This document shows, piece by piece, positions 1 to 29,006 of a DNA stretch of 64,000 bases. How positions within the stretch are numbered: the stretch's first letter is position 1; every line of letters starts with the position of its first letter. The stretch covers positions 372,001 to 436,000 of the forward strand of contig BCIN01000007.1 in the NCBI GenBank assembly GCA_039545335.1. The letters run 5' to 3'. Made by a program: the position numbers and the translations under genes. The notes under the pieces were generated by a model. The model was not told the DNA's origin, did no database searches, and saw only the letters and a program-made list of their open reading frames with translations. The stretch comes from Kondoa subrosea. Taxonomy: Eukaryota.

Positions 1-2079
1 AGTATCACTCCTTTCAAGAATCTCATCTTGCAAATTAGGCTGATTGATACGGCTAGTGAGGATGACAGTCAAGATGCAAGATATGAGAATGTGCATTCCG
101 AACTTGTTCTTGCCTTGTTGCTCGAAAATACGTCTGTACAAAAAGGACGATGAGCGGTAGAAGTAGCGATGCTCCAGAGAACTTACTCAGGTGCGGTGAA
201 GAGATTTGCTGCTACCTCGTAGAGCGGCCGATTATCTGGCAAAGAGCTGGCTTGTCTGATTCTTTGCCACTGCGAAGCATTTTCAGCAGCGAAGAGGTTA
301 TCGTCTTCTGGAAGCGACCAAGAAGTCGATCCAGGTCTGTGACACGACATTATAATTAGTATTACAACCCAGATATATTGATGTCAATCACTAACGTGGA
401 GTAAGGCGGAACCAGAAAGAAAGTCGCGAAAGTGAGATCGTTCAAGCAGAAGCACAGAGCAGTCCTTTTCCTGGTCTCGAAGATGGTCCATCTTTTCCAT
501 GCTCGATCAACATCATCTCCTTCTTGATAAGGTTCGCATGGATCTGCATCGAAAAGTCCAGCTCGACGAGCGACATTGGCTACTGTCGAATGCAATAATT
601 GCGTAGCTTCAAGCATTTCTTGATTTCCGCTGACAAGCCAGTATAGTTGTCTAAGCATACTGTGATCTTCGCTTTAGCCGGTATGGGCGCTGGAAAGGCA
701 AGACTTACTAAGCTTGACAAATTGCTAACGCATCTTTATCTAATCGATCATACTTTGCGGGAACTTGTACTGGAACATAGAAAGACAGGCTAGACTTCTA
801 CTCTCAGTGATATGATCTCAACAGGCATACTAAGCTTACGTTTCATTCATCTTGGCCATAAGAGCGGAACCTAGAGTTCGGTGATTCTCGTCCTTGCTGT
901 ACAGCGAGCCAAGAGCGATCATACTGAGCAAAACAAGAGCACTAGTCTTCGCAACAGAGAAAGTCGGTGCATGTAATATCGGCCAATGCGGATGCCACTG
1001 TATAAGATTAATTATTTTTCGGACTGTTCTTCATCGATGACTAACATTGCGGAAGTAGAGCTCCAAGAAGCTACCCAGCTCATTCCGAGGCGGAAAGTCC
1101 ATAGGTATAGCACCGAGATGGTTGACAATACGCTCGTACGAGCTTTGATCGCTGGAGAGAAGATCATTAGTTAACACACAAAGAATAGCTTGATATATAG
1201 CGTACAAAGACATTCTGGCTTCAACGGATTCGACCTCGGAAGTACTAAGGTTCATTCCAGAGCAGCATTGCTGCTTCTTTCGACTTGCTTTAGTAGGCCA
1301 CATGTTGCTGACAGTGTCTTTAGTGTTGCAAGGTTCTTCCATTGAAACTGAAGTGTTCGACCAAGACTCCATTTCGGCATGAGAGAAAGGTCGTAAACCG
1401 GAAAAATCAAAGAGGGAATCATAAGGCAAAGCGGAAGATGGTTCCGACAGACTATCTTCATTGGATAAACTCATCCATTCAACCTCTTTGGCGGCGACCG
1501 CAGAGGGAATGTAAGGAGGAAGAGGTAGCGATTGATTGATGGAAGGCAATTGCGAAGGTCCAGCTTGTGGACCAGCGAAGGCAACAGTGTCTTGTGACAG
1601 CTGTAGCAGTAGAGCGGCGTGATCTTGAGTCGCATTGGTGGCAGGAAGTGCCTTGTTGAGCATGATAGGTTTCACAGGCTGACCAGGATGTGCCGTCTTG
1701 ACATGCCTAGAGTTGGAATTTCAGCCGCTTATCGAAAGACACTGCAATTCCAGGCTTACCTTGCAAGTACATCTTTCCGAACATAGCTGAGCGCATACTT
1801 CAACGCTGTAACACAATTAGACGCAACGGGAAGCTCACCTCTTTGTACATAGAGAGCATCCAAAAGGCTTCTCGCCTGTTGACAATGAGCTCTCGTCTTA
1901 ATCAGAGCAATCCACGTACCTGTGTGGGAGCGTTCATGCCTTTCCAGGTGTTCTGTCTTGTGAAAAGATTTGTCGCAATAATGACATACAAGCGTCAATC
2001 TATGCTTCTTCGCTGGTCTATCGGGCACATTGGCCATGGCAGTAGCTTGGCCATCCATGAAGTCGTCCATATGATTCAT
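1..2079 (-). CDS. C2H2 zinc-finger plus fungal-specific transcription factor domain protein (3' end runs off the window)
   Basis: The spliced N-terminus reads CHYCDKSFHKTEHLERHERSHTG|EKPFGCSLCTK|SYVRKDVLAR|HVKTAHPG, two C2H2 fingers with a TGEKPF linker and GT-AG introns. A fungal TF middle-homology region follows (LELYF...HWPILHAPTF...LLSMIALGSLY...WKRWTIFETRKRTALCFCLND). The first plausible ATG is at 2079. Confidence 0.9.
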
Positions 2080-2259
2080 TGCGATTCCCGCAACGAAAAC
2101 ATTCACCGGAACCTTCAATACACCAGACGAATGGCTGCTGTGCTCGATTTCAGTGAGCTCTCTATAATTCCATTGCTTCGCTTGAGTTGTCGATCTGATG
2201 GTGAAGGAACAACACAAGCATATGGGACTTGCGGCACCGTTCTTGCTCTCACTCGACGA

Positions 2260-3443
2260 ATGCTAGGATCTTGTAGTCGCCTGTCATCGACTCTCCCATC
2301 CGTACTCGCTATCCCACGGACATCTGCTGCTCTGCCTTCGCTGTCCTTGATTCGCAGCACCTGTCGTCAGATGTCTTCCACCGCAAACCCTTCAGAACCC
2401 TCTGCAGAGTTCCTTGATGAATCTTGGAGAGATGCATGCGAACTAGGATGGGTGGGAGATCTGGAATTAGATACTGCTCAAGCACTTCATGGCACGTTGG
2501 ACCGACCGCTCAAAATATTAGTATTATACGGAAGTCTCAGAGCCACTTCTTACTCCCGCTTTATGGCATTTGAAGCTTCGAGGATCCTCAGTAGATGCGG
2601 AGCAGATGTCAAGGTCTTTAATCCAGCATCGTTACCGCTTAGTAAGCATCTGTGTCCTGAATGCTTGGAAAGCCAAGCTGATGAGACTCCAAAAAGAGAA
2701 TGATAAGGACGAGAACTCACCAGCTGTGAAAAGTATAAGAGAGTTATCTTTGTGGAGTGATGCTCAGTTTTGGTGCAGTCCGGAGCAAGTGAGAATCCCT
2801 TTCATTTCTATGGGAATACGACTCATCACTGAATCATAGCATGGTGCTATCACTGCTGTGTTCAAGGTGCATCATCTCTTGCTTTCTCAACGAATTGGAC
2901 TGATGTTTTGGCAGAATCAAATCGATTGGATCCCTCTCAGCACTGGCTCAGTCAGGCCCACCCAAGGTAGAACGCTCGCTCTAGCTCAAGTGAATGGTGG
3001 ATCGCAATCTTTCAGTCTGTCTTTTTCACAGCTCTCTGGTAGAGCTGAAAACTAATTTACTTCATTCCTAGACACGGTCAACACTCTTCGACTACTAGGG
3101 AGATGGATGCGAATGTTCACTATTCCCAATCAATCATCTCTACCGCAAGCATATACTCAATTTGTCGATGGAAGGCTCAAGCAGTCAGGAAATAGAGACC
3201 GATTGGTGGATGTGTGCGAAGAGGTGAATGATCTGAAGGTTATCCAGTTGATGCGGCTAAGCAATTTTCCAGCTCATCAAAACGACTGTCATCTTGAAGC
3301 CGCATAAAGCTCTTTTTGACGATCGATATTCAGAACGGACCGAACAAGCCAAGCATGGTCGGTTACAAACAGCCGAAGAGAAGTTTGCTTTACTGGGCAT
3401 CAAAGCAGAGAATAACAAAGCCAAAGAAGATTACAGTAAATAG
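2260..3443 (+). CDS. arsH: ArsH, NADPH-dependent FMN reductase / organoarsenical oxidase (about 5 introns)
   Basis: Motifs [97 protein letters not shown] and DRYSER are all present. In-frame ATGs lie at 2260 and 2371, and the TAG is at 3441-3443. Confidence 0.95.
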
Positions 3444-3474
3444 AGCTTTCCACAGCAATATAGACATCTAGACT

Positions 3475-4021
3475 CTAGAGAGCATCTTTCCATTCTTTCC
3501 AACCCGAATAACCGCCTTTCAGAATCAAAGCTTTGTTCTTACTTATTCCTGCTTCTGTTAGAGCATCTTGATACCAACGAGCGCATCGAGGACCTCGACC
3601 ATTTGATCGACCACAGAAGAAAATGGCGTCCTTCCCTTGTGTCGATTTGACCAGCTCATGTCGAGCGAAGTAGAAATTTTGAGCTACTGAATTAAGAGCT
3701 CCATCTACTGTTCCATCCTATACACAAGCATGTGTCTAGAAAAGGCATATTTGCTATACATCAACGAGTACTGACGGAGAACTCGTCTGGCTTGCGGACA
3801 TCAATTATCACAGCTTTGCCTTGTTTGAAAAGCTTGGCGGCTTCAGATGGGGGAATGCTGGATACTGCTGTGTCTGATTCGGGAAAAGCATCCCACCAGC
3901 GCTTGAGCAAATCTTTGGAGGCTGACGAAGAGCGAGATTCAGCCTTTGGGGTTGAGAAGTCTTTGCTAGCGATCAAGACGTCGGGAGAAGTGGTATCGAC
4001 TGAAAACAATACTGAGTACAT
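3475..4021 (-). CDS. Rhodanese/Cdc25-fold phosphatase, Acr2/Ych1-like putative arsenate reductase
   Basis: Exon 1 contains IIDVRKPDEF. After an intron (~3718-3773), exon 2 reads DGTVDGALN...AIFFCGRSNGRGPRCARWYQD...LILKGGYSGW, which includes the CX5R active-site loop. The start codon is uncertain. Confidence 0.85.
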
Positions 4022-4975
4022 TGCTTCGCCTTGAATGCATGGATTAGATGGACCTACTGCTGAAACCTGCTTGTGAGAAAGCTGCTTGATGTTTACGGGC
4101 CTCTTCAAGCAGATACACCTGGCCTTCAGTTTCCAGAACACTAGACAGATTGGCGATGGTCTGATCAGACGCAGACTCAGAAGAAAGTAGGATGATCTGA
4201 TCAACGCTAGACTCGTTCAAAGGAAACTCGTTTTGGGAATGTCCGGCAGCACAGAAGCGAGGAGGTGGAAAGCCATAGGTGAAGAGAGTCTTCTGCAGTT
4301 CTTTGACCCTGCTCTGCTAGCAAGTCAGATTGTTTGAGAACCGCATGGGATGCAGGCAACTTACTTGTCTAGAGCTGAGTATAACGAGTCGACCAGAACC
4401 AACGGATCCGCATGCCCTCAAAGATTCTTCAGTTGTGAGGTCGCCTGCTGAAGCTGTCAGACTGCGCAATGTTCTTCCGAAACGTTCAAACCTAGTATAA
4501 CGACATCACCGTCCTGCGATAGCCATCATTTTTAATCGAAAAAACTGCTGCAGCACTCACTGCGTTGAGGCATTCAAAGATTGTCATTATTGTTTTGCAG
4601 GTCGCAATGCAGTAGTGTATTCAATGCCTGAAGCGGCAGATACAACCAATGTCAGCAGATTACACCGCGATGGAAGCAGCGGACTAACCAAAGAGCAGGC
4701 AAGCGAGCGAATGCTCAATCGAAGGATGTCAAACCTGAAAAGCTGAAAAGGTTCGATGTCCCAGGCCAAGAACCCGTTGCAATTCGATGCTTACAAGGCA
4801 GCAAGTAAAGTACTGTCTGTCAGGCCAAGTATCGCTGTCACATCGTAAGGTTGAGGAGGCAAAAGAGTACTGTGGGACATTTGATCATTTTCGGTGGTAC
4901 CTCTTTACCAACCATCATTTCCTCTCCCTCCTTCCTTTTTGCTTTCCCCATCTATCCTTTACACCTCAGCAAGCT

Positions 4976-6698
4976 ATGACCAAGAAGTCCTGCCTTCATG
5001 AAGCTCCAGAGAATGTGGAAAACCTTACACCAATCCAAACCAGTACAAAACTCTTCAACAGACTATCATGGCTTGATCGGTTGTTGGCTCCCTTAATTCT
5101 GGTGGATATGATTGTGGCAGTCGCTGTGGGTGCTACGACAGGCGATGCCATTCCAAAGTACGTCCGCTCTGTCGAATGCTGTTCATCTTACTGACTGTCT
5201 TGATAGCGCCTTCGATCAAGTCAAACTCAAAGGCGTCTCTTTTCGTGAGCTCATCTTGCAACTCGCACACTTCTTATCTGAGCTGGACTATTAGCTATCG
5301 TTATTGGTTTGCTAGTCATGATGCTTCCGCCCTTGACTCGCGTGCAATATGAGCAGCTCCCAGCGATCTTCCGGACGAGGAAGGTGTGGTATCAACTTGG
5401 AATATCGTAGGCTCCCTAATCTACTATGGCGATTGATCTCATAAGTCTCGTAGACTAATACTGAATTGGATTGTTGGCCCTTTTGGTGTGTTTACTTTAC
5501 AAAGATAGTAGAGCACACTCAATAACTGCGTAAAAGTCATGCTTGCTTTCGCTTGGGCTACTTTACCCGATTTACCAACTTATAGAACTGGAGTAATATT
5601 GGTTGGTATAGCGAGATGTATAGCTATGTGAGTGCAGTTCAGTTAGTCGACTGCTGTTGATTGACAGAGAAGGACACAGGGTTATGATTTGGAACAGCTT
5701 GGCTGCAGGCGATCATAATTATTGCGCGATTCTGGTGGCCTTCAACTCTATTCTTCGTGAGCTCTAAACTTCATCTAATGTCGAATCAACTCAAATGTTC
5801 TGCAGAGATCGTTCTCTATGCGCCCTATGCTTTACTACTCATTAACGTGATCGGCGGATCAAATGAACTTACACTAGACTACGGCAGTATGCGAGCTTTT
5901 CTTCAATGCTTACTTGATCTAATACATGTGCTAGCCGTCGCTTTGGCCGTTCTGATTTACCTTGGTATTCCAGTGGCAGCAGGAATTGTCATCCGATATT
6001 CCGTTTGGGCATTGAAAGGCAAAGCTTGGCTCGAAGAGGTCTTTTTACCTTATTTCGGACCACTGGCGCTTGTAGGACTGCTTTATACAATCTTTGTTAT
6101 ATTTGCATATCAAGGCAATCGGATAGTCGGGTAAGTTATGCCGCTTTGGAATTCAATCACATATTAATGTCTAGAACAGCAATGTCGGCAACGTCTTCAG
6201 AGTCTTCGTTCCTCTGCTACTCTACTTCATCGTTATGTAAGTCTTATTAGCGATGATTCATTCTCATGGCTTATTCTTCCGCTAGGTGGATCGCAACATT
6301 CGGCTTTATCTACTATCTATCCATCAAGCAAAAGAGATACTTTGGCTACGAGATGGCTGTCGTCCAGTCTTTCACGGCAGGGTCGAATAATTTCGAACTT
6401 GCAATCGCGATCGCCATCGGAACATATGGTGTGAACTCAGATCAAGCGTGCGTATTCGACTTGTTTCTCATTTAGAACAGGTGACTAATTCTTGATGTGT
6501 AGTCTGGCAGCCACAATAGGTCAATTGCTTCTCGAGGCGCGTCCGATCTTTCGCTTATTTATTTGGCGATTTACAGGTCCACTTGTAGAAGTCCCAGTGC
6601 TGCTAGCGTTGACTTATGTCTCGTTATTGGCAAAGAAGAAGCTCAGCTGGCCTGTGGTAGAAGAAGAACAGAAGACTAAAGAGATGGCGAATGTGTGA
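4976..6698 (+). CDS. ACR3: Acr3 arsenite/H+ antiporter (BART family), many introns
   Basis: Motifs LSWLDRLLAPLIL, MMLPPLTRVQYE, NWIVGP, GVILVGIARCIAMVMIWN (conserved Cys), YLGIP, AGSNNFELAIAIAI and GPLVEVPVLL (conserved Glu residues) are present. Confidence 0.95.
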
Positions 6699-7068
6699 AA
6701 GCAGCACAGTTCAGTCATCAATTGTAATCTTGCATGTTCTCTTAGTATTGTACATAGATGTCGAATTACACTAGATGCTCGTTCTGATTATTGCGCATGA
6801 TTGCCAAATGTCCTTTCTGTATGGAACTATAAGAACCAGTATAAGACGAGGCGAGGTTAAAGAACACGGAAGAGCAGGAATCGTCAAAAAGATCAGGAAG
6901 AGCAGGAAGAAGAGAACAGGGACAAGCAGGAGACGTGAACTTTAGTATTAATACAGCATCGTGCGACCAAATAACGACAAAGTACAACAGAAACATAAGA
7001 ATTATCGCACTGATGAATTCTCCACATGCGCCCAATCTCCATCCATTCCTCTCAAGCCGCAAAACATT

Positions 7069-7766
7069 TCAACTTAATCTTCTGACAGACATAGCTCTGA
7101 TGTGGAAGCATAAGCTTGATGTTTGGAGAGCAAGTGGAGTAAAAAGTTGACTGACCTGAACATGCTGCCCAGTTTCGAACTTCCCGAAGAAGAAGTTCTC
7201 CTTACTGAGACTGGTCTTTGCGCAGGTGGTGGAATATCAATGTAAGAAGGTGGATCTTTCTTTGGCGATAAAGCAGAAACGATTTGTTCTAGTTGATAAG
7301 CTTCTGCAGTGCTGTAAGCAGGAGAAGGTCGAGCGATGATTGGGTTTCCCTATTGAATTTGAATCAGTATATAATACAGAACAGAAGAGAGGGTGTGACA
7401 ACTCACTTCTTCCTCTTCTTCCACTTCAGATGATGACTCGGACATACACTCCAACATCAAATCCAACCATTCCACAACTTGCTCCATCTCATCTCTTTGA
7501 TCCGTTGAGGAAGACATGTTGAAAACCAAGACTGCTTTCAAGCGTTTGATGGGTAAAGTAGGTTGATCGGAAGGGCAAGATTGAGCAGACATTGCTTGAT
7601 GGAAAGATTTCTCAGATCGTTTGAAAGCTTTGACAAGGTAAGAGATTTGTAAACTGGTCTCTTGAGCTGAAAGAGGATTGATATGAGAGTTAGATAAGAT
7701 GTGGATTGATTCTTCTAGCAATGGCATAGTGTCTGGCGCAAAGCGTACTCTTCGTGTAGAAACCAT
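7069..7766 (-). CDS. Hypothetical protein (3 exons), with N-terminal RVRF and a PPSY motif
   Basis: The ORF MVSTRRVRFAP...EEEEE splices (GTGAGT...AATAG) to GNPIIARPSPAY...DPPSYIDIPPP...GSMF, then to RRLS*. No family recognised. Confidence 0.5.
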
Positions 7767-8922
7767 GGCGTAAGGAGTGTATCGTTTCAGGAAAGGACGA
7801 CGAGGACTGATGGGACGATATTTAGTGCAAAGAGGAGAAACCGTCATAGCGTGTTTTTGTATAATAGCTTGATGGAGTTAGTGGAGTGGCCGAATTTTGG
7901 ACTCAAAGTGGAGCGATAAGTGGGATCTGCCTTGATCGAGCGGATGTTTTTATCGTTGAGAATCGCGACTAGTGGATGATCTTGACGGATAAATAAACCA
8001 AAGCAGCTCCCCTGTATTCCTGGAATATTCTGAGGAGTTGAAAGATCGAGATTTGTTTGTTGTTTCCGTAAGGAGATATTTGATTGGAGTAGACGGTGTT
8101 TGACCACAAATTCCAGATCAAGAGTATGAAGTGTGCACTTTTCTGACTCGCAGGAAGATGACAGGAAAAGTTGTCCAATAATGTATTCGTCTATTGTTGC
8201 AGCTATCGTTAGCACGTTTCCGCTACAGAGGGAAAAGAAAGTCGCATACCTCTGAATTCTTAAGCTATGCAACAGTCTGATATAGTGACTGCAAAGATTT
8301 GGATTCTGCAAGTTGGTCTTGTATAGCTGATTACTACGTCGTTGCGGGCAGCGAGAGCGGACTGATAAGGCTATCAAGAACGTAGGCGGAGAAGGTGACG
8401 TAGCTCTTCCCGCTAAGCGTTATAATATCCTTTTCAAATCACAGCTAGACTTGAGTTCGACGGAAAAGGAAAGAGAGAGAAATAAAGCGCTAAGAATGCG
8501 CTGAGGTAGATGTTTAGGAGGTCCAAACGATGATACGTGTGTCAATGATGCTAGACTCTGAAAGATGGCCTGAGAGCGAGAAGAAAGAAGCAACGCGAGT
8601 ACCGGGCAAAGGAGAAGTTCATTGCGCGAAACAGAGCAACGAGAGTGAAGGACCAGCTGCACGAGACTGCGGCCAACATGGCAAGAGTACTGTAGCATAG
8701 AAACAAGAAAATGAATACAAGCAGGTTGGATGTTTCGCTAAAATTGGTGCGATTGGTCAATTGCCAGTGCTCAGGAATTGCGCGACAAATAACGCGTACT
8801 GCCTGCGATGCTCTTCAAGAAGCTATAGCACGCGAGATCACAGCTAGATGAGCTTACAATGGTCTCTGATGAACCAAAGGCTGATTTTTATGCGAATTCG
8901 TTGCTTGCACCTGTGATACCAA

Positions 8923-10002
8923 ATGCCTCGCTTACCCTCAGCTGCTATACCTTTGATTCGATCAGCCTGTACATGTCAACGCCGATCCTTGAACACTCTG
9001 GTTGCAGCTTTACCTGAAATTCCTTACAAACCTACTTCGAGCTCTACTGCCTCTGAACAACCCCCTGCAGATTATGATCCTCTAAAAGAAGGTCTTGCTA
9101 AATTTCATCCGAAATATGATGTACATCCAACCAAAACTTGGAGATCTCCTAATGGATTACATGAAATTTTCATTCTCAATGATCCTCCTTCTATTTCCCA
9201 ATCTCGTCAATCTAGATCAAGCGAAGAAGAAGATGAAGCTGTTCTTGAAGGACAACAAGGATCAGCAGGAGGAGGAAGTATCGCACCTGATCAAGCAATC
9301 TTACAATCTTTAGCAAGAACGACGGATTTCACTCTGAATGAATTGAGGGATCTACATAAATATCCGCTCGTTATTCATAGAGTGGCTTCAATGACTGATA
9401 AAGGGAAACAAGTGTCCATGTATGCTTTAGTTGTTGTTGGTAATGGAAATGGGTTGCTAGGCGTTGGTGAAGGAAAGCATGAGAATGTAGCTCAAGCGAT
9501 TGATAAAGCTTTTGCTCAAGCTGTAAAGAAGATTGGTGTCGTGGAACGCTTCGAGGACAGGACGGTTTGGGGTGATCGAAAAGACAAATACGTTGCTACT
9601 CAAATCGAAATGTGGTCAAGACCTCCAGGTTAGTACTTCTTCTTCTACATGAGCTTTGATCACATTGATCATGCTATTGTAGGCTTCGGAGTAAGAACAT
9701 CGCCTATGATACATCAAGTAGCCAAAGCAGCTGGTATTACCGACTTGGCAGCAAAGATTCGTGGGTCAAAGAATCAGATGAATACAGTTAAGCTAGCAGT
9801 AAGGATGTTACAGAGTCGATCGAATCCTTTAGGTTAGTCGAATCGAATCTATATAGCTGGAAATAAGCTGATCGCTAATATCCGATTGCTAGGCATGGGA
9901 AACATTCGAGGTGGAAGAGCGTCAAGAGATGCAAAAGGTATCGGCATGCGAACCGCTCAAGAAATAGCGTTCTCTTTGGGTCGAAGAGCAGTAGAGGTGT
10001 AA
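8923..10002 (+). CDS. MRPS5: Mitochondrial ribosomal protein S5 (uS5m)
   Basis: A presequence-like N-terminus is followed by RVASMTDKGK...ALVVVGNGNGLLGVGEGK, ERFEDRTVWG and SRPPG|FGVR...AAGITDLAAKIRGSKNQMNTVK. Two introns. Confidence 0.92.
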
Positions 10003-10074
10003 TGAGCAACACAGGGAACAAAAATGTACAATTCGCATCGCATGCTTCGACACTTTACTACTCCTGCCAAGTCA

Positions 10075-13000
10075 TTACCAGAACCTATGATCATTCATCA
10101 TTATGACCAGGAGATGTTACCGATGAAGAAAGGAGAAGCTTACGCGCACCAACCCAGGTAAAGCAAAGCCAAGTTCTCTGTACTGGTAGCAGCAGTAATC
10201 AACCGATCGACTTGCTGCTGTACATCCAAAGGTGTAGTGTTACCAAAATCTTTGCCTAATAATTTCGCTTGGACTCGATTGATGATCTTTAATGCTTGTG
10301 TATTCAGTTGAGGCTGGATATGATCAGACTCCGATCGGTTCCGACTGATTGACGATAGTGTGTCTGTGGCTAAAAGGCAGATGAGTTAGTTGAGCGCAAT
10401 AAGAAGCGAAAGGAGAAACTGACATTGCTGACTTCTCGATCGGTTGGTTGTTTGCAAACGCCAGGAAGTTACAGGCTGCAAGCACGAGTCAGCTTGAATC
10501 AAATTAGCAAGAAGATTATTGATTCACATCATGGACGAAAGCTTGGAGCAACGTCAACATCGAGTCCTGCAGCACAAGTCAGCAAGCATAATCTATATTA
10601 ATCGAAAGCAGCTGACCTTGTATTCACGCAAGATGCGCATAGTAATCTGACTAGCCATTCGATAGGTACCTTCCACATCTCCGCATTCCAGAGCTCGGAC
10701 CATCATGCGCGTGAGTCTAACTCAGCCGTGTCAAGTGAGCGATTATACAATGAATGTTGCAGCCGCTTACCTGAAGGGCACAGTCTCTGGAAATCGATCT
10801 CGATTGATAGCCACTTCAAAGCAATCCCCGAAATCACTGCTCTCACAGACATAAGCTGGGCTTCCACACGCATGTCAAAGAACGGACACATGAAGCACAC
10901 CGCCAGTCTTGCGATCGATTAGTAAATTCGATGGATGTCGATCTCCCAAGCCTAGACAATAGCCAACCATGGACATGACTGCTAGATCTCGAGAATAGCG
11001 AGTTCTTCGTTCGAGCCAAGTCTCAGAATTAGGACTGCCAAGCCACATCATCGCATATAGATCCTGTCCTGATGTCTGCTCTAATGCTTGCTCGAAGACT
11101 AATGAAAAGAAAGCGATTTTGAGTCCTTTCTGTAGCAGAGGACAAGTAAGACTCACTCTCAACTTTTTGCAATCTCGTCTATGCACGATAATTAGACACA
11201 ACCTTGTAGTCATAATTTCTACTTACATGCTTCTCATACTTTGGCGCAAAGTGATACATCGCTCGGAGCTCTTGACTGAGCGCAGAATAAGCAAAGTGCT
11301 CAGCACATACTTGGTGACTCACTCTAGAACGATCTTTTCCCTGGCTCGATAGTCTCGAATGAGGACATGTAGAGTCTAGTATCATATGTTACCACGAGTA
11401 AGGTGTCGAGGTGTACTTTGACCTACATCCTTGTTATCGATCCATCCGATCAAACCGCTGGAGGGAGAAAGTGGAATAACAGGATAAGCAGTAATGGACA
11501 ATCTTCGCTTGAACGATTCTCGATCCCTTGATAAGATTGTATTGACTAGTCCAACGAGCTGCATCACACGTTCATCCAAACGCAAATCTTCATGACCTTT
11601 GAGCAAAAAGGCATGCTCGCGTCCATCATTACCCTTAGGATTGATTAGTATAACCGAAGACCCAAATTTGAGCACGTACCAGCATCTTCAACCTGCGGGG
11701 TTTCTGCTTCGAGGCGAGAACATAAAATAAAGGGCGAAAGCCATCGATCTTGATGAGCGGGGAATTGGCTCTTTGACTGGTTCCTGCAGTACAACATGTT
11801 ACACTGAAGAACAGTCTGACAGGCACTGAGCATACCAGGCACAGCCAATTGCAAGTTCCGCAGATGAAAGAGCTTTGGTGACGCAGTGCGCAAATCAACG
11901 AGCTTGAGATTGCTGCAATACCCGTTAGCCTAAAGATTATGGAAGTTGAATGAGATCAGGTGCTCACGTCAGCTCGGTATTCAGACGTCGGAAAATGCTG
12001 TAATCTGTTGCAAACGATTTTAAAGATCCGAATTGGAGCAGGGCTCCCCAGCTCACAGTAGTCCCATGCGCGATTCAGATCGTCATTGTGCCGCAATCTC
12101 TTGAATCGGTTGGAAAGATCTCGAGCAAAGCGTAGATCTTCACCGTAGCGCTGAACGAATCTGTTCTCACAAATGTTCAGACAGTTGGAAAGTCTGCTAA
12201 ACCCGCACTTACTCTGCCTCCTTGACGGTTTCTGCTCCTTTGTCTACCATCTCATGCAATGGAGATAATTTGACAAGCATTGCATCGAGCATCCGATCAC
12301 CGTAGAACATCCGACTAGCTTCCTCCAAACCCTGTTTCCGAATGAGTACTGCCATCATGCGCTTTTGAAAGAAATTTGACCTCGTGCCATAGTTCTGCCC
12401 AACTAATAGCTGCTCGGACTAGCTCTCGCCCAACTGTCAGTGACTGATGATCAGTGACCTATCGTCAGATCCATCACAGAACACAAAGCTAGTACTCACT
12501 TGCTCTATCAACACATCATTATGTACTCTCAATCTGTCTAGAATACCCAGGGCTGCTCTACGTTTCGTCAGATTCGAATCTTTGGCCGATACGCTGGCAG
12601 GAGGAATCTCGGAAGAGTCTCGACAGTAAAGATCCGACTCACCTAAGAGACCACACTATAGCCTGAAGGTGTGCTGATCCGGTCTCCAAAAGAATGTGAA
12701 TCACCACTCTGCGAACTGAGGGAGAGGGAGAGTCCATCCTTTGACGAATTGTTAACAATGACTTGACACATGGATCTTACACTGACCTTGCCATGAGTTG
12801 AGGTGTCACTGGTAGCCAAGTGTCGCTTTTGATCTTGGTGAAGTCGATCATGAACCTGGGATATGTTTGTAGAGTCCTATTATTCGTTGATGTAGTAGAC
12901 CTACGCGTCAGCAACTTCATTTTCGTGTCCGTAGGTGAAAAGTAAGTCTAATAGCCGCAATGTGTCTTGAAGAATATAAGAGTCGCCTTCCCGAGCGTGG

Positions 13001-19971: not shown

Positions 19972-21353
19972 TTATAATGTATCATCCAATAGCGCTTGCT
20001 TTGCCCGAATATTGACGAAACCATACTACACAACATCGGGTTAGGTGTGTTGACAGCCGATGTGAAAAGGCTCACCTCTATGACTTTCGGCGATTTGCCA
20101 TTATGCGCGTCCTAAAAAGAGATAGGTTCAGCTTGAAGAAGTGAATATTAGCATGAAAGACTGACTTGATAATTCAGCTCGCGAGTGAATGGTCGTCTGT
20201 TTGTGAACAAGAGATCAGCATCAGGCAGAAAGCATCTATTCTGATCAAGAACGGACAGCCCAGCCTTTTCTAAGTCTTCCCACCTGGTTGCAACGGATCA
20301 ATTGAGTCCGAAACAATTCAAAAAGGGCTCACCATTGATAATACTCCGCAAATGTATTCTTCCACGCGTGTATCTCCAGTTGAAGTTGACCAAAAGGTAA
20401 AACTCCACCTTTTGACCTTCTGATGATATCTTTCAACACATCGAATTCCGCTCCTTCCACATCGATCTTCAGCAGATCCACAAAAGTATGACCATTCTCT
20501 TTCATTATTGAATGTAGAGTCTTCGTTTCCGGATTAGCGGGAGAAGCAGCTAAATTGACGGCATCTAAGCGATAAGGTTTGAAAGTAGTTCTTGAGGAAA
20601 GTGAAGGGTTGTCATGAATCTCTGATCCGGCTTGAACTTTTCCACCGTCGAAAAGAAAGAGTTTGCATGAAGGTGAGTGATGAAGAAGATCAGCTTCATA
20701 GGCTGAATTCGCTTCCACGCCTATTCGAAATTCAGTCTGGGTCTCAGATAATCTCAGGTAGGCACACACCAAAGGAGTAAATTATACAGTCTGGTACTTG
20801 CGAGACACGATCGTAGCCGCAGACCCATCTACTAGGGGTATCAGCATGGATAGATGGCAACTTTGATGCATGACTTACTTGCCTCCATCTCCAGCTGGAC
20901 CGAGCCGCTGTATCTCATGAGGACAGCTCCAAGCTGGATTGAGGAAGTCCCAGAGTGTTACGAGTCGTCTTTCTGCTCAACTCATGAGCGAGACGTCTTA
21001 CAGCGATCCATGTGTAGTGTACCTTGCTTATCACCTGGAGCAGGGAAAGGATTCAGATCTTTAGGCGTCGGACCAAGTGCCTCAATTAAAGCTTGTCTCT
21101 TCGTTATGCTAGTCGCATACAGCTTATGCGACCGTTCTATCCGTTCTCTGGTTGATCTGTATCCTGAATGCAAATGCTTGACTTGGGCAGAAGCAGGTGT
21201 AGAAGAAAGATGCTCGTAGAATTGAGTCGACGAAGGGTGCTGAAGGAACAGTAGAAAACATAGGGCAACAGCTGCGCCGATACTGATGTTGCGATTTCGC
21301 TTGGAGTGCAGCCAATTCTGCAGATTGGTGATAGCAGAAATTGCTATAGACAT
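19972..21353 (-). CDS. Methyltransf_22 / METTL24-like SAM-dependent methyltransferase-domain protein with an N-terminal signal anchor
   Basis: The hydrophobic anchor ISIGAAVALCFLLFL is followed by CIIYSFGV, EANSAYEADLL, MKENGHTFVDLLKIDVEGAEF, LPFGQLQLEIHAW and WEDLEKAGL. The C-terminus is YGFVNIRA...DDTL*. Confidence 0.8.
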
Positions 21354-23012: not shown

Positions 23013-26000
23013 CTATTCCTGCGATCTAAAGTCTGTTGAAGCAAGTTCCGCAAATTTACCGCCTCTTTGCATCAAATCGGCAGGAGACCCTTGTTCAACA
23101 ATTTGACCCTATCAAACAGTGAGCATACGCTCGAGAGCAGAAAGATGCAATGTCACCTCGTTCATGACAATGATCAAGTCCATCTGCATGATCGTCGAAA
23201 TACGATGAGCGATAACAAGCATAGTCGTGCCCGTTGTGTTTCGCAAAGCGTCTTGCATTGCTTTATCAGTTTCATTGTCTGTGCTCGAAGAAGCTTCATC
23301 AAGACACAGAATCTTGCATTTACGTAAATAAGCTCGAGTCAAGGCCAGTAGCTGCTTTTGTCCTTGAGATATAGAGCCACCCTAATACGGAGAGAATCAA
23401 AGCGAGCCTGCATGCGCCACAGAAGGGAACGTACATGGGTTACAACTTGATGATCAAGCTTACCAGGCAGCCCTTCGACCATTGTATGAGCTCCTGTGAC
23501 TTGAAGTGCATCCCAGATCTCTACATCAGTCTTGATCCCTTCAATATCGAGGTTTTCCCTTATTGTTGTTTCAAGCAATAGCGGTTCTGAGCGAGAGTCG
23601 ATTCAGTCAAATACAGGTGCGCAACATAGATTGCTTACCTTGTGGAATGATCGACATGCTCCTGCGCAAATCATACCGAGACATGGACGTAATATCTTTC
23701 CCGTCGACAAAAATACTCCCGCCTTGCTCGAGGTCAACCAATCGAAACAATGCTGCCAGAAGTGAGGACTTTCCTGAACCGGTTCTTCCACCTATCATCA
23801 TATAAACCTATGACCATATCTTGCGCAGAAAGTACATACAGATGCCTATTCTTTGGCCAGCCTCGATCTCTAGATTAATTTCGCGGACAGCAGGTTCAGC
23901 GCCGTATGAGTAGCGAATAGTAACGTTTTGCATGGATATTTTGCCCTCTTCAACTTCGAAAGTACTAGCTTCTTCTGTCAAAGCACTGATCCGGTGATCT
24001 TCCTTTGGAAGATCCGAAATCGAGCTAATGCGCCCAAGGTTGACGGAATGTGCTTCCAACGAGGTCAATTTGATGAAGAAGGTAGAGACAAGGTATGTGC
24101 TTGTACAGACTTGAATTAGGCCAATACCAAGGAGAGGATTCTTTGTTTGCCGAAAGATGACCGCTGACAAGATGAAGCTCATAGTGACAAGCGAAATCTA
24201 CAAATCCTGTGAGCTCATGCAAATGGCTTCACAATCAACTAACTTACAAAAAAGCTGAGTATCAAGTAGTAAAATTGAGATCCTATGCCAAGCAAGATCG
24301 TAGGTGTCTGTGCATCAGCGATTGCGTAGTCTGTCTTCTCGATGATTTGGTCTTGTCTTCCTAAACCTCGAAGGGTTCGCAAACCATCGATCTGGCGCGT
24401 GATCAACATTGAGATAGTCCCAACAACATGTGACTGACTTGGGATACTCCCGCGATGGCAGAATAGATTGGAGTCTTAGCAGCTGCTTGTAAAGAGCGTA
24501 ACTGCTTCGAGGTCACAGCATACAGGCGAGCAGAGAATAAGCCAACGACAATTATGCAGGCATAGATGAGGATCGACCAGCGTGTAATGAAGAATGCCAC
24601 ACTAAAATGCCAATAAGAGACGATGGCAGCATAGGATAGAGGTCTTACACGATGTGCGGAATGAATTCCACCATGTTTCCTATACCTGGACCAAATTCCT
24701 CATTGAAATGCCTTCGTAGACTAGCACGTCGCTGGAATGGATTTGAGCTGGATTCTAGGCAAAGAGGTAGAGGCATACGAAGAGAAGCGATTCACCAACA
24801 GCGCGGGTGTGAACTGCTGTATCTTCTGCATGCTAGTGTTGAGTAATCCAGCAATCTGCTTTTTGTGCACGACAGTGACTGCTTGAACGGGCTGCTGAAG
24901 CATTAGAAGTGACTCGATATCTTCGGCTGACTGACCAAAGCTACAACCCAGAAATACCACCAGCATATTTGAGATACCATGAAAGCCAATCCCAAAGCAA
25001 GCCATCCAAGAAGCCATCGTGAATTCAGGAAGTCGTCGGACAATGACCAATATCTCAAAAACGCCGCGAAACCGAAAGCCTCCACTCTTTTGAAATGAAA
25101 AAAGACAAGAGAAGTGTCTTAATTTCAGCTGTTGCACATACGTCCACAAGTGCTCACAAATTCGCAGGAAACTGAGCCGCTAGACTCAAAGAAGAAAGAG
25201 TTGCTCCAGCAGCTTTCAAATGCATTGCCACCCCCGTCCGTAAACTGCCTGTCGGTGCAGAAGCTTCTTGGTCGACCGATTTGACGTCTTCGGTAACAGG
25301 TTCTTCCTTCGTAGTCGGGCTAGAAAGAAGTTCCTTCTTCGCTTCACACTCTGGCGAAGGTAATATTCCAGCAAACGTTGCGGGCGCGCCTTCGCGAAGC
25401 ACTGTCTTGCCTTGCAGCTGGATTACATGATCGGCAAAAGCGAGTAGCTTGTGGTCATTTGTGACTAGAGCGACCGTCATTCCGTTGAAGACACCTTGCT
25501 GTCCAAATAGATTGCTGAAGATGTGCGATGCCGTTATATTGTCAAGAGCGGAAAATATGTCCTATTACGACAGGCCTTAGTCAAGCTCAAAGATTCAGCT
25601 CGCTGAGACAAACATCAAGAAGTACAAAGGATGATTTGGCGTAAATTGCCCGTGCAAGTGCCTATTTAGCATTCAGTTTTGATTCAAGCTCGCTGAAGGA
25701 TTACCTTACCACTCGAGCTCGTTGGCCTCCGCTAAGACAAGATGACGGTACTTCATTATCAGCCATAAGACCTATATCCGTATGCAGTTCACAGGTGTCC
25801 AAAACCTTCCTATACCAAGTATCATCGTAAGCCGATAGGAAAACTATGTTCTCGCGCATGGTCTCGAAAGGTAGATAGGTTGTTTGAGAAGCGTATGCTA
25901 TGGACATTCCTGTAGGAACTGTAGCTTTGCCGGCAAGGAGCTCGACTTCGTCCATCATGGCATGCAATAATGTTGATTTGCCAGATGCAACGGGACCGAT

Positions 26001-28179
26001 GATTATAGTCAGTTTATTTTGAGGTACATGAGCGTTGACATCTTTGAGAAAGGAACCTTCGTCCCGGAAGCCAAAACTGGCTTGGGAGAATATGATATCC
26101 TGATCCAGTTCGCGCTTAAGGCATGATATATCTTTGAGCGCTTTTTCTTCGGAGAGGATGAAAGTTTCAATACGTTGCAAGCTTGAGAGCGCTGTCATAG
26201 CCTTGCTGACCGTCCATGCGACATCCCAGAACGCATCCGTCGTAGCTTGCAAAACATTCAAAGCGGCAAAGACTGAAGCGTAGCTAAAGCTGGCCGGATG
26301 TTTTCTGGACGACAGAGCAAAGAGAACGAAAGTTCCACAGTAGAAAGAGATATATGCGAAGTTGTTGAAAATTCCGGTATGAAACCATCTAGTCTTGAAC
26401 TCGCGCTGCAGAGACAACGTCAGCTCTTGACTACAATTGATGAAGCCTAGATTCACCTGATATTGTAGCTCTTCATCGCGTATGTCCATATACTTGGAAA
26501 GGATCGGTATTTCATAAGCTTGGAACTTGATCGCTTTCACTGGCAGGAGAGCAGATTCCGTCAGCGCGCAAAGTAGCAGAAATCAACTCACATACTGCAG
26601 TGTATTATCTGTCACTCGGCATCAGTCCTTCATGTCAGCATGCAATAGAAAAGCCTCACCGAAGAAATCAGCTTAACGCGACGATCTGACGCTTCGCTCC
26701 ATTTCGTTTGATCCGGAATCAATCTCTTGCTGACTAGTGGGATGACTGTCAAGAGGACCAACCATCCGAAAAGAACACCTAATGCTGCGAGACCGAATAT
26801 CTGCGATAAGATCGGCAGACCCAGAAGAACGAGTAGCAAGAACAAAAGCGATAGATAAGGCAGAGCAACAATGGCAGCAATCCTTTCCACGTCGGCTGCG
26901 AAAAAATGAGAAATAGTTCAAGCCGACATAGTCTGTACTGACTTGACATGTAAGAGCTCAATGCGCCAGATCCGATTTTTCTCGCTGTATGCCCGCTGAT
27001 CCGCAAGCCTTTACGAAAGATGATTCCTTGTACTAATCGCAAGTCAGCAATATAGCAGTATAGTCAAGCACATACTCACGAAGTGTTTGCAACCGCGCTG
27101 TCAACTTGAGTCGCAAAACATTGTGCGCAGACATGAAAAGAGCATTCCCAAATAGAGCTATTCCGTAGCCTACAACGAGTGCATAGCCTATTTGGACAGG
27201 TTCTTCGACAGCTTCCGTCTGCCAGGAATTCAAGAATTGAAACAATCTTTGAAGAAGTAAAGGGGTTGACATCCTTAACAAGGCGACGATGCAGATAGGT
27301 AAAGCTGGAAGTAATAAATTGGTGCCCAGAACACGGATCAAAGATCGAGTGATAGGATGTTGCCTGTGCTGATACGATTCCCAAACCATATTGAAACGCT
27401 CCACATCTTTCTTGACCAAAGCTGGATCTTGGCTTCGACCCAAATCAGCTAGCTTGATTGCTCCTCTGTAGCCGAGAACAAGATAATGCGTGAACCAGAG
27501 GAGAATGATACGCGATATGAAAGGTGCTGTAGCTTCAACCAGACTAGCATTCTATAATCAGATGTCAGCATTTTTAGTCCCGGATACTGACAAGACTGAC
27601 CTTTGTGTCGATATAAGGCAAGAGTATATCCTTCTTACTGATGTTTTCGCAAATGAACAGGCCAAGCTTGCCCAAAATGATGATACAAATCCAAGGGCTG
27701 TCGAGATTGAGCCAAGATTTCGAGGCTACTTCAATCGCGCCATAGGTACGCAAACTTATCAAATCGGCAAATAAAGAGAAGAGTAAGTAGACTGAAGCAA
27801 TGCAACTACTGGAGAGCGTCTTGTAGTGCTCATACCATATCAGAACAGCCAAATGCAGCACCGCCAGCACATTGGCTAGTTGACCAATCTTAACCAAAGC
27901 ACTTAAATCCCAAGTCACTGTGCTGAATGCCAAGGTGACTGCACTGCCGACCGCTACCAATGTTGGAAATGCATAGATCTTGCAAGTAAGCAGGAATGAT
28001 CTGGCTCTGATTTTATCGTCTTGTTTGGCCAGAAATGGTACGCGTAGCCACGTAGCGAAGATGAAGAGGCTGGCTGGTAGGATAGACAGGAACACAGCTT
28101 CCTGGGCGAAAGTGAAGTCGAATACTCGACATTCGCTCGGCCTAAAAGGCAGATTAAGATCATCATGACAGAGGAGCAT
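23013..28179 (-). CDS. ABCC/MRP-type ABC transporter (TMD0-TMD1-NBD1-TMD2-NBD2)
   Basis: NBD1 has GPVASGKST and [12 protein letters not shown]2 has [27 protein letters not shown] and IAHRISTI. The N-terminus reads [19 protein letters not shown], followed by multiple TM exons. Confidence 0.92.
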
Positions 28180-29006
28180 GATGAGCGAGCTAAAGGGAGA
28201 AAGAGGGCAGCAAAAAGAGGGAGAAAGCAAACGTAAAAACAAAGGACCGTTCGAACACAGCTTCGAACAGTCATGGTGTTACATCGCTCACAAGGTCTAC
28301 AAAGACGGACAAAGAGTAGCGTGTACTGCAGCAGAATGCCCAGTGTGCTTTGCAAGGCAAAGTTCGATACGAGAGATGCTTGTTGCTGGCGAACGAGCCT
28401 CGAAAACAAAGATACAGCTGCTGTGCTGATGCGCTCTCTCAAGGCATTGGACAGTCACTGAACACCTCTAAGCGCGCTGAGACTCCTGTTGTTCAAGACT
28501 TTGCAATGGCTGCCCAACTATCGATCGAAGTCTGGCATGCTCGACGATTGATGTGCTCAAAGAGCCTGAACGGAGAGCAAGTCCCGAACCAGTCCTTAGG
28601 AGCAGCTTGTATCCCGGAGGCAGCCCTTCAGACGAATCTCTTTCAACGTTTCTCTGATCTAGTTCTGCAAGGGTAGCATCTTCGCAACCGGGTCTTATTG
28701 TGACTTGGTGCTTGCCTTGTCCTTGGTCGAATCGTCACTCAAGTATAATGGGTCTTTGGGTTAGTTTGGGAAATGCCTTAAACTAATAGGGAAGCTATCT
28801 ACACTTGAAGTCTATCCCCGCTGTCCTGTTCTATCTTCTTCTCTCTGGAAGAAGCGTAGTTTTGCTAGATGACCAGTTCTACCAACCATGTCCTACAGTT
28901 CAATCTGTTTTTCGTTCCCTTTCAGTTGCAGGAATCTGTTTTCATCTGATATCATTCTTCTTCTGTAAATTTCGAGGAGTCTTTACCTCTCAATTCGCTA
29001 TCAAAG

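Follow-up and report, generated by a model that had tools for sequence, protein, structure and literature searches.

Described arsenic clusters and the Kondoa locus

Gene sets that join ArsH, an arsenate reductase and the arsenite efflux permease Acr3 are so far known chiefly as cargo of Starship transposons in ascomycetes. A related set lies at the beginning of a 64,000-nucleotide stretch of the Kondoa subrosea genome (contig BCIN01000007.1 of assembly GCA_039545335.1, positions 372,001 to 436,000 of the forward strand). This whole stretch is termed here the window, and all coordinates refer to it. Positions 1-6698 of the window contain four intron-rich genes arranged, according to the coordinates of their gene models, as two divergent pairs. 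These are a transcription factor (TF) with a C2H2/Fungal_trans architecture facing away from ArsH, followed by an Acr2-like rhodanese facing away from Acr3 (<-TF ArsH-> <-Acr2-like Acr3->). Judged from its gene families, conserved residues and layout, the locus is very probably an arsenic-detoxification cluster on a fungal chromosome and belongs to the known core type, i.e., ArsH plus arsenate reductase plus Acr3.

The Saccharomyces cerevisiae cluster ARR1(YAP8)-ARR2(ACR2)-ARR3(ACR3) resembles the locus in that an Acr2-type rhodanese gene and Acr3 share a divergent promoter and have a transcription factor gene next to them. It differs in that yeast has no ArsH in the cluster and its regulator is a basic leucine zipper (bZIP) protein, whereas here a C2H2/Fungal_trans gene is beside ArsH and not beside the reductase. 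Features of the Yap8-controlled type were not found: no bZIP domain was matched in scans of open-frame pieces from 1-8848, where short or intron-split exons could be missed, and there is no TTAnTAA (Yap-like) site in either of the two divergent spacers. Bacterial ars sets are operons under ArsR, mostly with ArsC-type reductases. The bacterial and cyanobacterial arsBHC sets and those of algae link the same three functions; here the functions are carried by separate intron-bearing genes, and the reductase is of the rhodanese type. ArsB-ArsH-ArsC neighbourhoods have been reported in green algae (PMC7826186).

Aspergillus fumigatus has two copies of an arsenic cluster (AFUA_1G16090-16120 and AFUA_5G15000-15030), in which ArsC(-) and ArsB(+) are divergent and are followed by a methyltransferase and ArsH (PMC3289889; PMC5552862). 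The likeness is one of layout: ArsC(-) and ArsB(+) are divergent neighbours, and ArsH follows at a distance of a few kb. An arsenic methyltransferase is situated between pump and ArsH in A. fumigatus, and no transcription factor is annotated in the available listing.

The Starship Hephaestus of Paecilomyces variotii has arsH, arsC, arsB, a Pho80-like cyclin gene and arsM, and loss of a 9,478-bp region of the element renders the fungus arsenic-sensitive (bioRxiv 10.1101/2020.03.06.981548). A survey of Starships defines a core of arsH, arsC and arsB/ARR3, with accessory genes that include Pho80, arsM, bZIP, TRX1 and P-type ATPase; the term C2H2 has 0 occurrences in the available cluster gene table (PMC12256816). 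As in this cargo, found in Paecilomyces, Aspergillus and Penicillium, the three core functions adjoin in Kondoa, where they are located within 2371-6698. In contrast, the Starship clusters reside in giant transposons of Pezizomycotina, and the locus described here has a housekeeping flank on its visible side and a C2H2/Fungal_trans neighbour; arsM and bZIP were not found. In the Starship Ariane of Botrytis cinerea, ArsH, Acr3 and a rhodanese Arr2-like gene adjoin (bioRxiv 10.64898/2026.05.30.728154). The trio is the same, including the type of reductase, but Ariane also carries a major facilitator superfamily (MFS) transporter and ArsY, is a strain-specific mobile element and has a different reported gene order.

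The preliminary description of the locus drew its comparison with the yeast cluster alone, on the premise that eukaryotic clusters are without ArsH; the independent assembly that it proposed is conjectural. The premise is outdated, as clusters with ArsH have been published for A. fumigatus, for the Starships Hephaestus and Ariane, and for green algae. Among 142 fungal genomes, ArsH is present in 47.6% and acr3 in 85.3% (PMC11370035). Since other fungi are already known to have this enzyme trio, the C2H2/Fungal_trans factor is the only element of the locus that could be new. The locus differs from the published cases in four ways: its right flank is housekeeping, its genes are very rich in introns, its ArsH falls outside the ascomycete clade, and it has a C2H2/Fungal_trans gene instead of a bZIP gene. 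It adds a chromosomal, intron-rich ArsH-reductase-Acr3 trio, apparently from outside Pezizomycotina.

ArsH, the Acr3 permease and the Acr2-like rhodanese

That four genes are present at these positions and in these orientations, as first described, is borne out by domain matches and by spliced frames that are open in all four (Table 1). Exon coordinates were set from three-frame displays of the window, in which open frames are generally short broken pieces, a eukaryote-like property. All introns (25/25) have GT-AG borders and are 44-59 nucleotides in length, with a median of 50. The library profile searches were run on unspliced exon pieces and not on spliced proteins. A further claim, that no other gene intervenes, is probably correct; the reservation concerns a run of 120 open codons without an ATG in the Acr2-like/Acr3 spacer, which has no detectable relative. 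The convergent stop codons of ArsH and the Acr2-like gene are 31 bp apart (3444-3474), so the two 3' ends must abut or overlap.

Table 1. Positions of the cluster genes, their exons and selected motifs in the window (aa, amino acids; nt, nucleotides)
Feature	Position	Strand	Details
TF gene, at least 557 aa	2079..1	-	9 exons, start codon at 2079, 8 GT-AG introns of 44-59 nt; C-terminus beyond window start
TF exons	2079-1920, 1875-1839, 1786-1760, 1706-1046, 997-840, 789-709, 659-396, 336-187, 133-1	-	
TF, two N-terminal C2H2 fingers	1688..1986	-	finger 1 Cys32-His52 (1986-1924); finger 2 Cys60-His81 (1858-1688)
TF, Fungal_trans (PF04082) domain	187..997	-	spread over exons 5-8
Divergent spacer TF/ArsH	2080..2370	.	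291 bp; 180 bp if ArsH start is 2260
ArsH gene, 270 aa	2371..3443	+	exons 2371-2641, 2697-2788, 2840-2866, 2915-3014, 3072-3223, 3273-3443
Acr2-like gene, Cdc25/Acr2-type rhodanese, 162 aa	4021..3475	-	exons 4021-3776, 3717-3475
Acr2-like putative active-site loop	3595..3615	-	Cys117-X5-Arg123, then Gly-Pro; aligned to loop of 1T3K and YGR203W
Divergent spacer Acr2-like/Acr3	4022..4975	.	954 bp; ATG-less open frame and 12-bp palindrome inside
Acr3 arsenite efflux permease gene, 388 aa	4976..6698	+	12 exons; TIGR00832 and SBF matches
Acr3 exons 1-6	4976-5157, 5207-5244, 5295-5406, 5454-5485, 5537-5627, 5680-5756	+	
Acr3 exons 7-12	5806-5886, 5935-6130, 6180-6236, 6286-6447, 6503-6519, 6577-6698	+	
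Acr3 Cys149 codon	5617..5619	+	R-C-I-A-M motif; column invariant in window and 9 bacterial Acr3
Acr3 Glu326 codon	6395..6397	+	N-F-E-L-A-I-A motif; column invariant in window and 9 bacterial Acr3

At the profile level, ArsH matches TIGR02690 (NCBIfam ArsH) in four colinear plus-strand exon pieces of 54.3, 27.7, 57.3 and 77.1 bits, which span profile positions 21-202 of 219; the equivalog cut-off of 292.25 bits applies to a whole protein, and these are scores of separate pieces. An exon piece at 2404-2703(+) also matches Pfam FMN_red. The spliced protein gives one colinear tblastn match in each of the 80 bacterial ArsH loci retrieved using ArsH exon 5 (80/80), with a median identity of 59.5% and a median length of 201 amino acids, and in the 15 best of the 80 the identity is 58-63% along the length. 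Identity to named fungal ArsH proteins of Ascomycota, Basidiomycota, Mucoromycota and a chytrid is 57.7-68.5% over 216-248 amino acids. The N-terminal loop G-S-L-R-x-x-S-x-S-R, which we take to be the flavin/phosphate-binding motif, is matched at 10 residues in the spliced protein, and likewise in a bacterial (P0061) and two fungal relatives (P0003 and P0005).

Two side observations concern ArsH and its relatives. An Acr3 gene is found within the 3-kb flanks of 20 of the 80 bacterial loci (L013-L092), which is the classic ars linkage. In addition, an in-frame upstream ATG at 2260 (2260-2370, +) would lengthen the Kondoa protein by 37 residues that include four Arg, nine Ser, seven Leu and no acidic residue. 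This extension looks like an organelle-targeting peptide, and long N-termini are also found in several fungal ArsH relatives.

The Acr3 gene matches TIGR00832 (NCBIfam Acr3) in two exon pieces of 68.9 and 48.4 bits, scored separately against an equivalog cut-off of 282.8 bits that is set for the whole protein, and the exon piece 5688-6134(+) matches Pfam SBF with an E-value of 2.5e-11 (44 bits). A search with exon 8 retrieved 12 metagenome loci, and the Kondoa Acr3 is matched in all of them (12/12). Uninterrupted bacterial-type genes are present in 11 of the 12; nine match at 41.3-46.4% identity over 330-369 amino acids and two are partial. The remaining locus (L002) is alone in bearing introns, and its identity to the Kondoa protein is 48-71%. 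The two invariant positions Cys149 and Glu326 are presumably those of residues essential for transport in bacterial and yeast Acr3.

The reductase is the weakest of the gene assignments. Exon 2 of the Acr2-like gene (3475-3717, -) matches Pfam Rhodanese at profile positions 52-101 with an E-value of 4.4e-4, and exon 1 gives a colinear match at positions 2-26 with an E-value of 0.012. Among PDB proteins, the gene product matches the Arabidopsis dual-specificity phosphatase 1T3K (E-value 1.6e-4), which we take to be the Arabidopsis CDC25/ACR2 protein, and yeast YGR203W (E-value 9e-4).

By homology, the three products would form a simple pathway. Arsenate, As(V), would enter the cell as a phosphate mimic and be reduced to arsenite, As(III), by the 162-amino acid rhodanese via its Cys117-X5-Arg123 loop. 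The 388-amino acid Acr3 antiporter would then export As(III) using Cys149 and Glu326. ArsH, as an NADPH-dependent flavin mononucleotide (FMN) oxidoreductase, may convert methyl and aromatic arsenicals by oxidation from the trivalent to the less toxic pentavalent state, or it may relieve arsenic-driven redox stress. The 954-bp divergent spacer common to reductase and pump would allow their co-induction, as with ARR2/ARR3 in yeast. The earlier proposal of a self-contained module for As(V) reduction, As(III) efflux and methylarsenite oxidation has good support from homology in its enzymatic trio, given the C-X5-R rhodanese, the Acr3 Cys and Glu motifs and ArsH; its regulatory part is more doubtful and is taken up below.

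Several observations weigh against a common arsenic function, and most concern the rhodanese. Each of its Pfam matches is under the gathering score (for exon 2, 21.1 versus 22.2 bits). Phe116 precedes the catalytic Cys117, and the protein therefore departs from the H-C-X5-R signature; YGR203W has His at this position. YGR203W, which is the comparably scoring PDB relative, is Ych1 and presumably not an arsenate reductase. A word-based search with exon 2 for longer relatives gave none, although this is weak evidence. In the intron-bearing metagenome locus, which is the only comparator of this type, neither ArsH, rhodanese nor TF is found within 10 kb of Acr3. The two divergent spacers of the Kondoa locus share no words beyond those of shuffled sequences (one 9-mer observed versus 2.0 expected, and none of 10 or more). 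Lastly, the title of one paper presents ArsH as an organoarsenic reductase, which points to other reported activities of this enzyme (PMC9137774).

From these data it can be argued that the genes are adjacent but have no common arsenic role. Acr3 alone would then be arsenic-specific, ArsH would be a general NADPH:FMN/quinone reductase, and the rhodanese would be a phosphatase of the Ych1/Ibp1 type or a sulfurtransferase. The similar match of the rhodanese to Ych1 and to Arabidopsis ACR2, the residue before its catalytic Cys, its low family scores and the debated activities of ArsH are all in keeping with this explanation. On the other side, the same three families recur in fungal regions linked experimentally to arsenic, and also in the bacterial and algal arsBHC sets. 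Moreover, in a genome of thousands of genes a chance run of three arsenic-family genes is very unlikely, by general reasoning rather than by a computed statistic. Adjacency without shared function is accordingly considered highly improbable, and the arsenic-detoxification cluster is the preferred interpretation.

The solitary Acr3 gene of the metagenome (L002:9319-10568) is on a 32.7-kb contig, and its neighbours include genes for an aminotransferase, an OTT_1508-like deaminase and a protein kinase.

The C2H2/Fungal_trans factor and the divergent spacers

Two pieces of the TF match the Fungal_trans domain, one at 836-1030(-) with an E-value of 2.4e-10 (40.4 bits; cut-off 23) and the other at 362-673(-) with an E-value of 2.2e-4 (20.8 bits). 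Finger 1 is detected by Pfam zf-C2H2 in the piece 1756-2262(-), with an E-value of 7e-4 and 20.3 bits versus a cut-off of 25.2. The C-x2-C-x12-H-x3-H spacing of finger 2 emerges only when two introns are removed. A long, unconserved linker separates the fingers from the Fungal_trans domain. An Atlas look-up of exon 7 revealed Fungal_trans-like character only, and a word-based search with exon 4, the largest exon, gave no relatives, which is weak evidence. Outside the fingers there is a vicinal pair, Cys222-Cys223, and a C-x-C motif at 444 and 446. Cys motifs of this kind serve in As(III) sensors, among them ArsR and Yap8.

The factor is tied to arsenic by adjacency alone, with 291 bp between its start codon and that of ArsH. 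In the four-gene module originally envisaged, the factor would be a dedicated arsenic-responsive regulator that takes the place of bZIP Yap8 and drives both divergent promoters. The close divergent start codons are consistent with this, as are the lack of a bZIP match in the scanned pieces and, by analogy with known As(III) sensors, the Cys motifs. In addition, an accessory transcription factor is frequent in the published arsenic clusters of Starships, albeit there a bZIP protein (PMC12256816). Short divergent spacers are, however, ordinary in compact fungal genomes. The lack of shared words between the spacers also argues against joint control, as do the absence of a palindrome common to both, the lack of relatives of exon 4, and the absence of C2H2 from the available gene list of the published clusters. 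Literature searches on a link between acr3 and a C2H2 factor gave only reviews among the papers listed, and no such study. Control of the cluster by this factor is therefore regarded as doubtful, if conceivable.

A more specific proposal is that the factor represents an unrecognized kind of eukaryotic metalloid sensor-regulator. By analogy, it would bind As(III) via Cys222-Cys223 and/or Cys444-x-Cys446, activate both divergent promoters and replace bZIP Yap8 in this lineage. This proposal is unlikely. If the factor does regulate arsenic genes, this could change current understanding, as little is known about fungal regulators of the arsenic response other than Yap8.

The Acr2-like/Acr3 spacer is partly open on its minus strand. 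Here 4505-4365 and 4316-4097 make up 120 codons with a canonical 48-nucleotide intron between them, and a 67-nucleotide intron could link this frame to exon 1 of the Acr2-like gene. There is no ATG, and no upstream exon that joins in frame was found. No relatives were detected in Pfam (E-value up to 1), in PDB (E-value up to 10) or among 1.84 billion representatives (E-value up to 0.001). Its codon-usage score does not settle the matter, since a known antisense frame reached an equally high value. As ATG, upstream exon and relatives are all lacking, the short model of the reductase was kept and the frame is regarded as unexplained. Perhaps the frame encodes a lineage-specific N-terminal extension of the reductase, but this would be a lesser variant of the sensor proposal and is likewise unlikely. 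The open frame 4047-4316(-) had been considered as a methyltransferase-like domain of the S-adenosylmethionine (SAM) type, possibly arsM-related and fused to the reductase; it was rejected, as it has no Pfam, PDB or representative match and no ATG. The same spacer has a perfect 12-bp palindrome at 4159-4170; about 1.6 are expected by chance with the search settings applied, and it is not significant by itself.

Ancestry of ArsH and the chromosomal setting

Phylogenetic placement of ArsH was by a quick IQ-TREE analysis of 105 rows, i.e., the window protein and 104 of 120 listed matches. Left out were 15 rows shorter than 195 amino acids and P0001, a 338-amino acid ArsH-like database protein with an internal duplication, whose C-terminal third is tandemly repeated. 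The window protein falls in a clade of 42 rows (SH-aLRT 100) that contains all rows labelled fungi. A separate clade of 63 rows (SH-aLRT 100) contains the only two rows with bacterial names. Inside the fungal clade, the branching order roughly matches the fungal phyla, and the window protein is in a set of 36 basidiomycete and ascomycete rows (SH-aLRT 95), outside an ascomycete clade of 18 rows (SH-aLRT 99). It has a long branch (0.53), and the tree does not resolve its exact neighbours. The high intron density and this placement agree with a basidiomycete, as first suggested, although the placement would equally suit an early-diverging ascomycete.

GC content is even across 1-12000 (0.43-0.51). 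To the right of the cluster, 118 of the window's 131 open frames of at least 90 amino acids were scanned, from 6769 to 63548. The families found are mitochondrial ribosomal protein S5, TOR kinase, a piece of an FkbM-type methyltransferase, an ABCC transporter with TMD0, tropomyosin, S9 peptidase, 2-oxoglutarate dehydrogenase, 3-beta-hydroxysteroid dehydrogenase (3-beta-HSD), a DEAD-box helicase and CBF/Mak21. Domains of transposases, reverse transcriptases or recombinases did not appear among these 118 frames; the window does not extend to the left of the cluster. The right flank, 57 kb in length, is housekeeping and chromosomal.

These properties bear on whether the cluster is recent mobile cargo, either part of a Starship-like element or a recently transferred bacterial ars operon. 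Starships do carry arsenic clusters in Eurotiales and Botrytis, the left border is beyond the window, and the identity of ArsH to its bacterial counterparts is about 60%. Yet all four genes have short, host-like introns, with 11 in Acr3 alone; GC content is even; the rightward 57 kb is housekeeping and gave no mobility domain in the frames scanned; and ArsH belongs to the fungal clade that roughly follows the phyla, apart from both the clade with bacterial names and the ascomycete clade. A recent mobile origin is thus a very remote prospect. The chromosomal trio and the fungal ArsH clade fit an old, vertically kept fungal arsenic module rather than repeated recent imports.

Some neighbouring features may be mentioned. 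An ABCC-type transporter gene (ABC_tran plus TMD0) is located at ~23800-28300(-), about 17 kb from the cluster. We take this architecture to be the Ycf1 type, and Ycf1 presumably sequesters arsenite-glutathione conjugates in yeast; the proximity is probably coincidental. The FkbM-type methyltransferase piece at 20332-20781(-) (PF05050) is not of the ArsM type, and arsM was not seen in any part of the window. Acr3 and the S5 gene are 2.2 kb apart, and the minus-strand open frames at 6769-8737 between them have no family match even at E-values up to 1. Two of these frames have exon-like codon scores (0.19), and 7501-8000 has an unusually high GC skew (+0.38); the region possibly represents an orphan gene.

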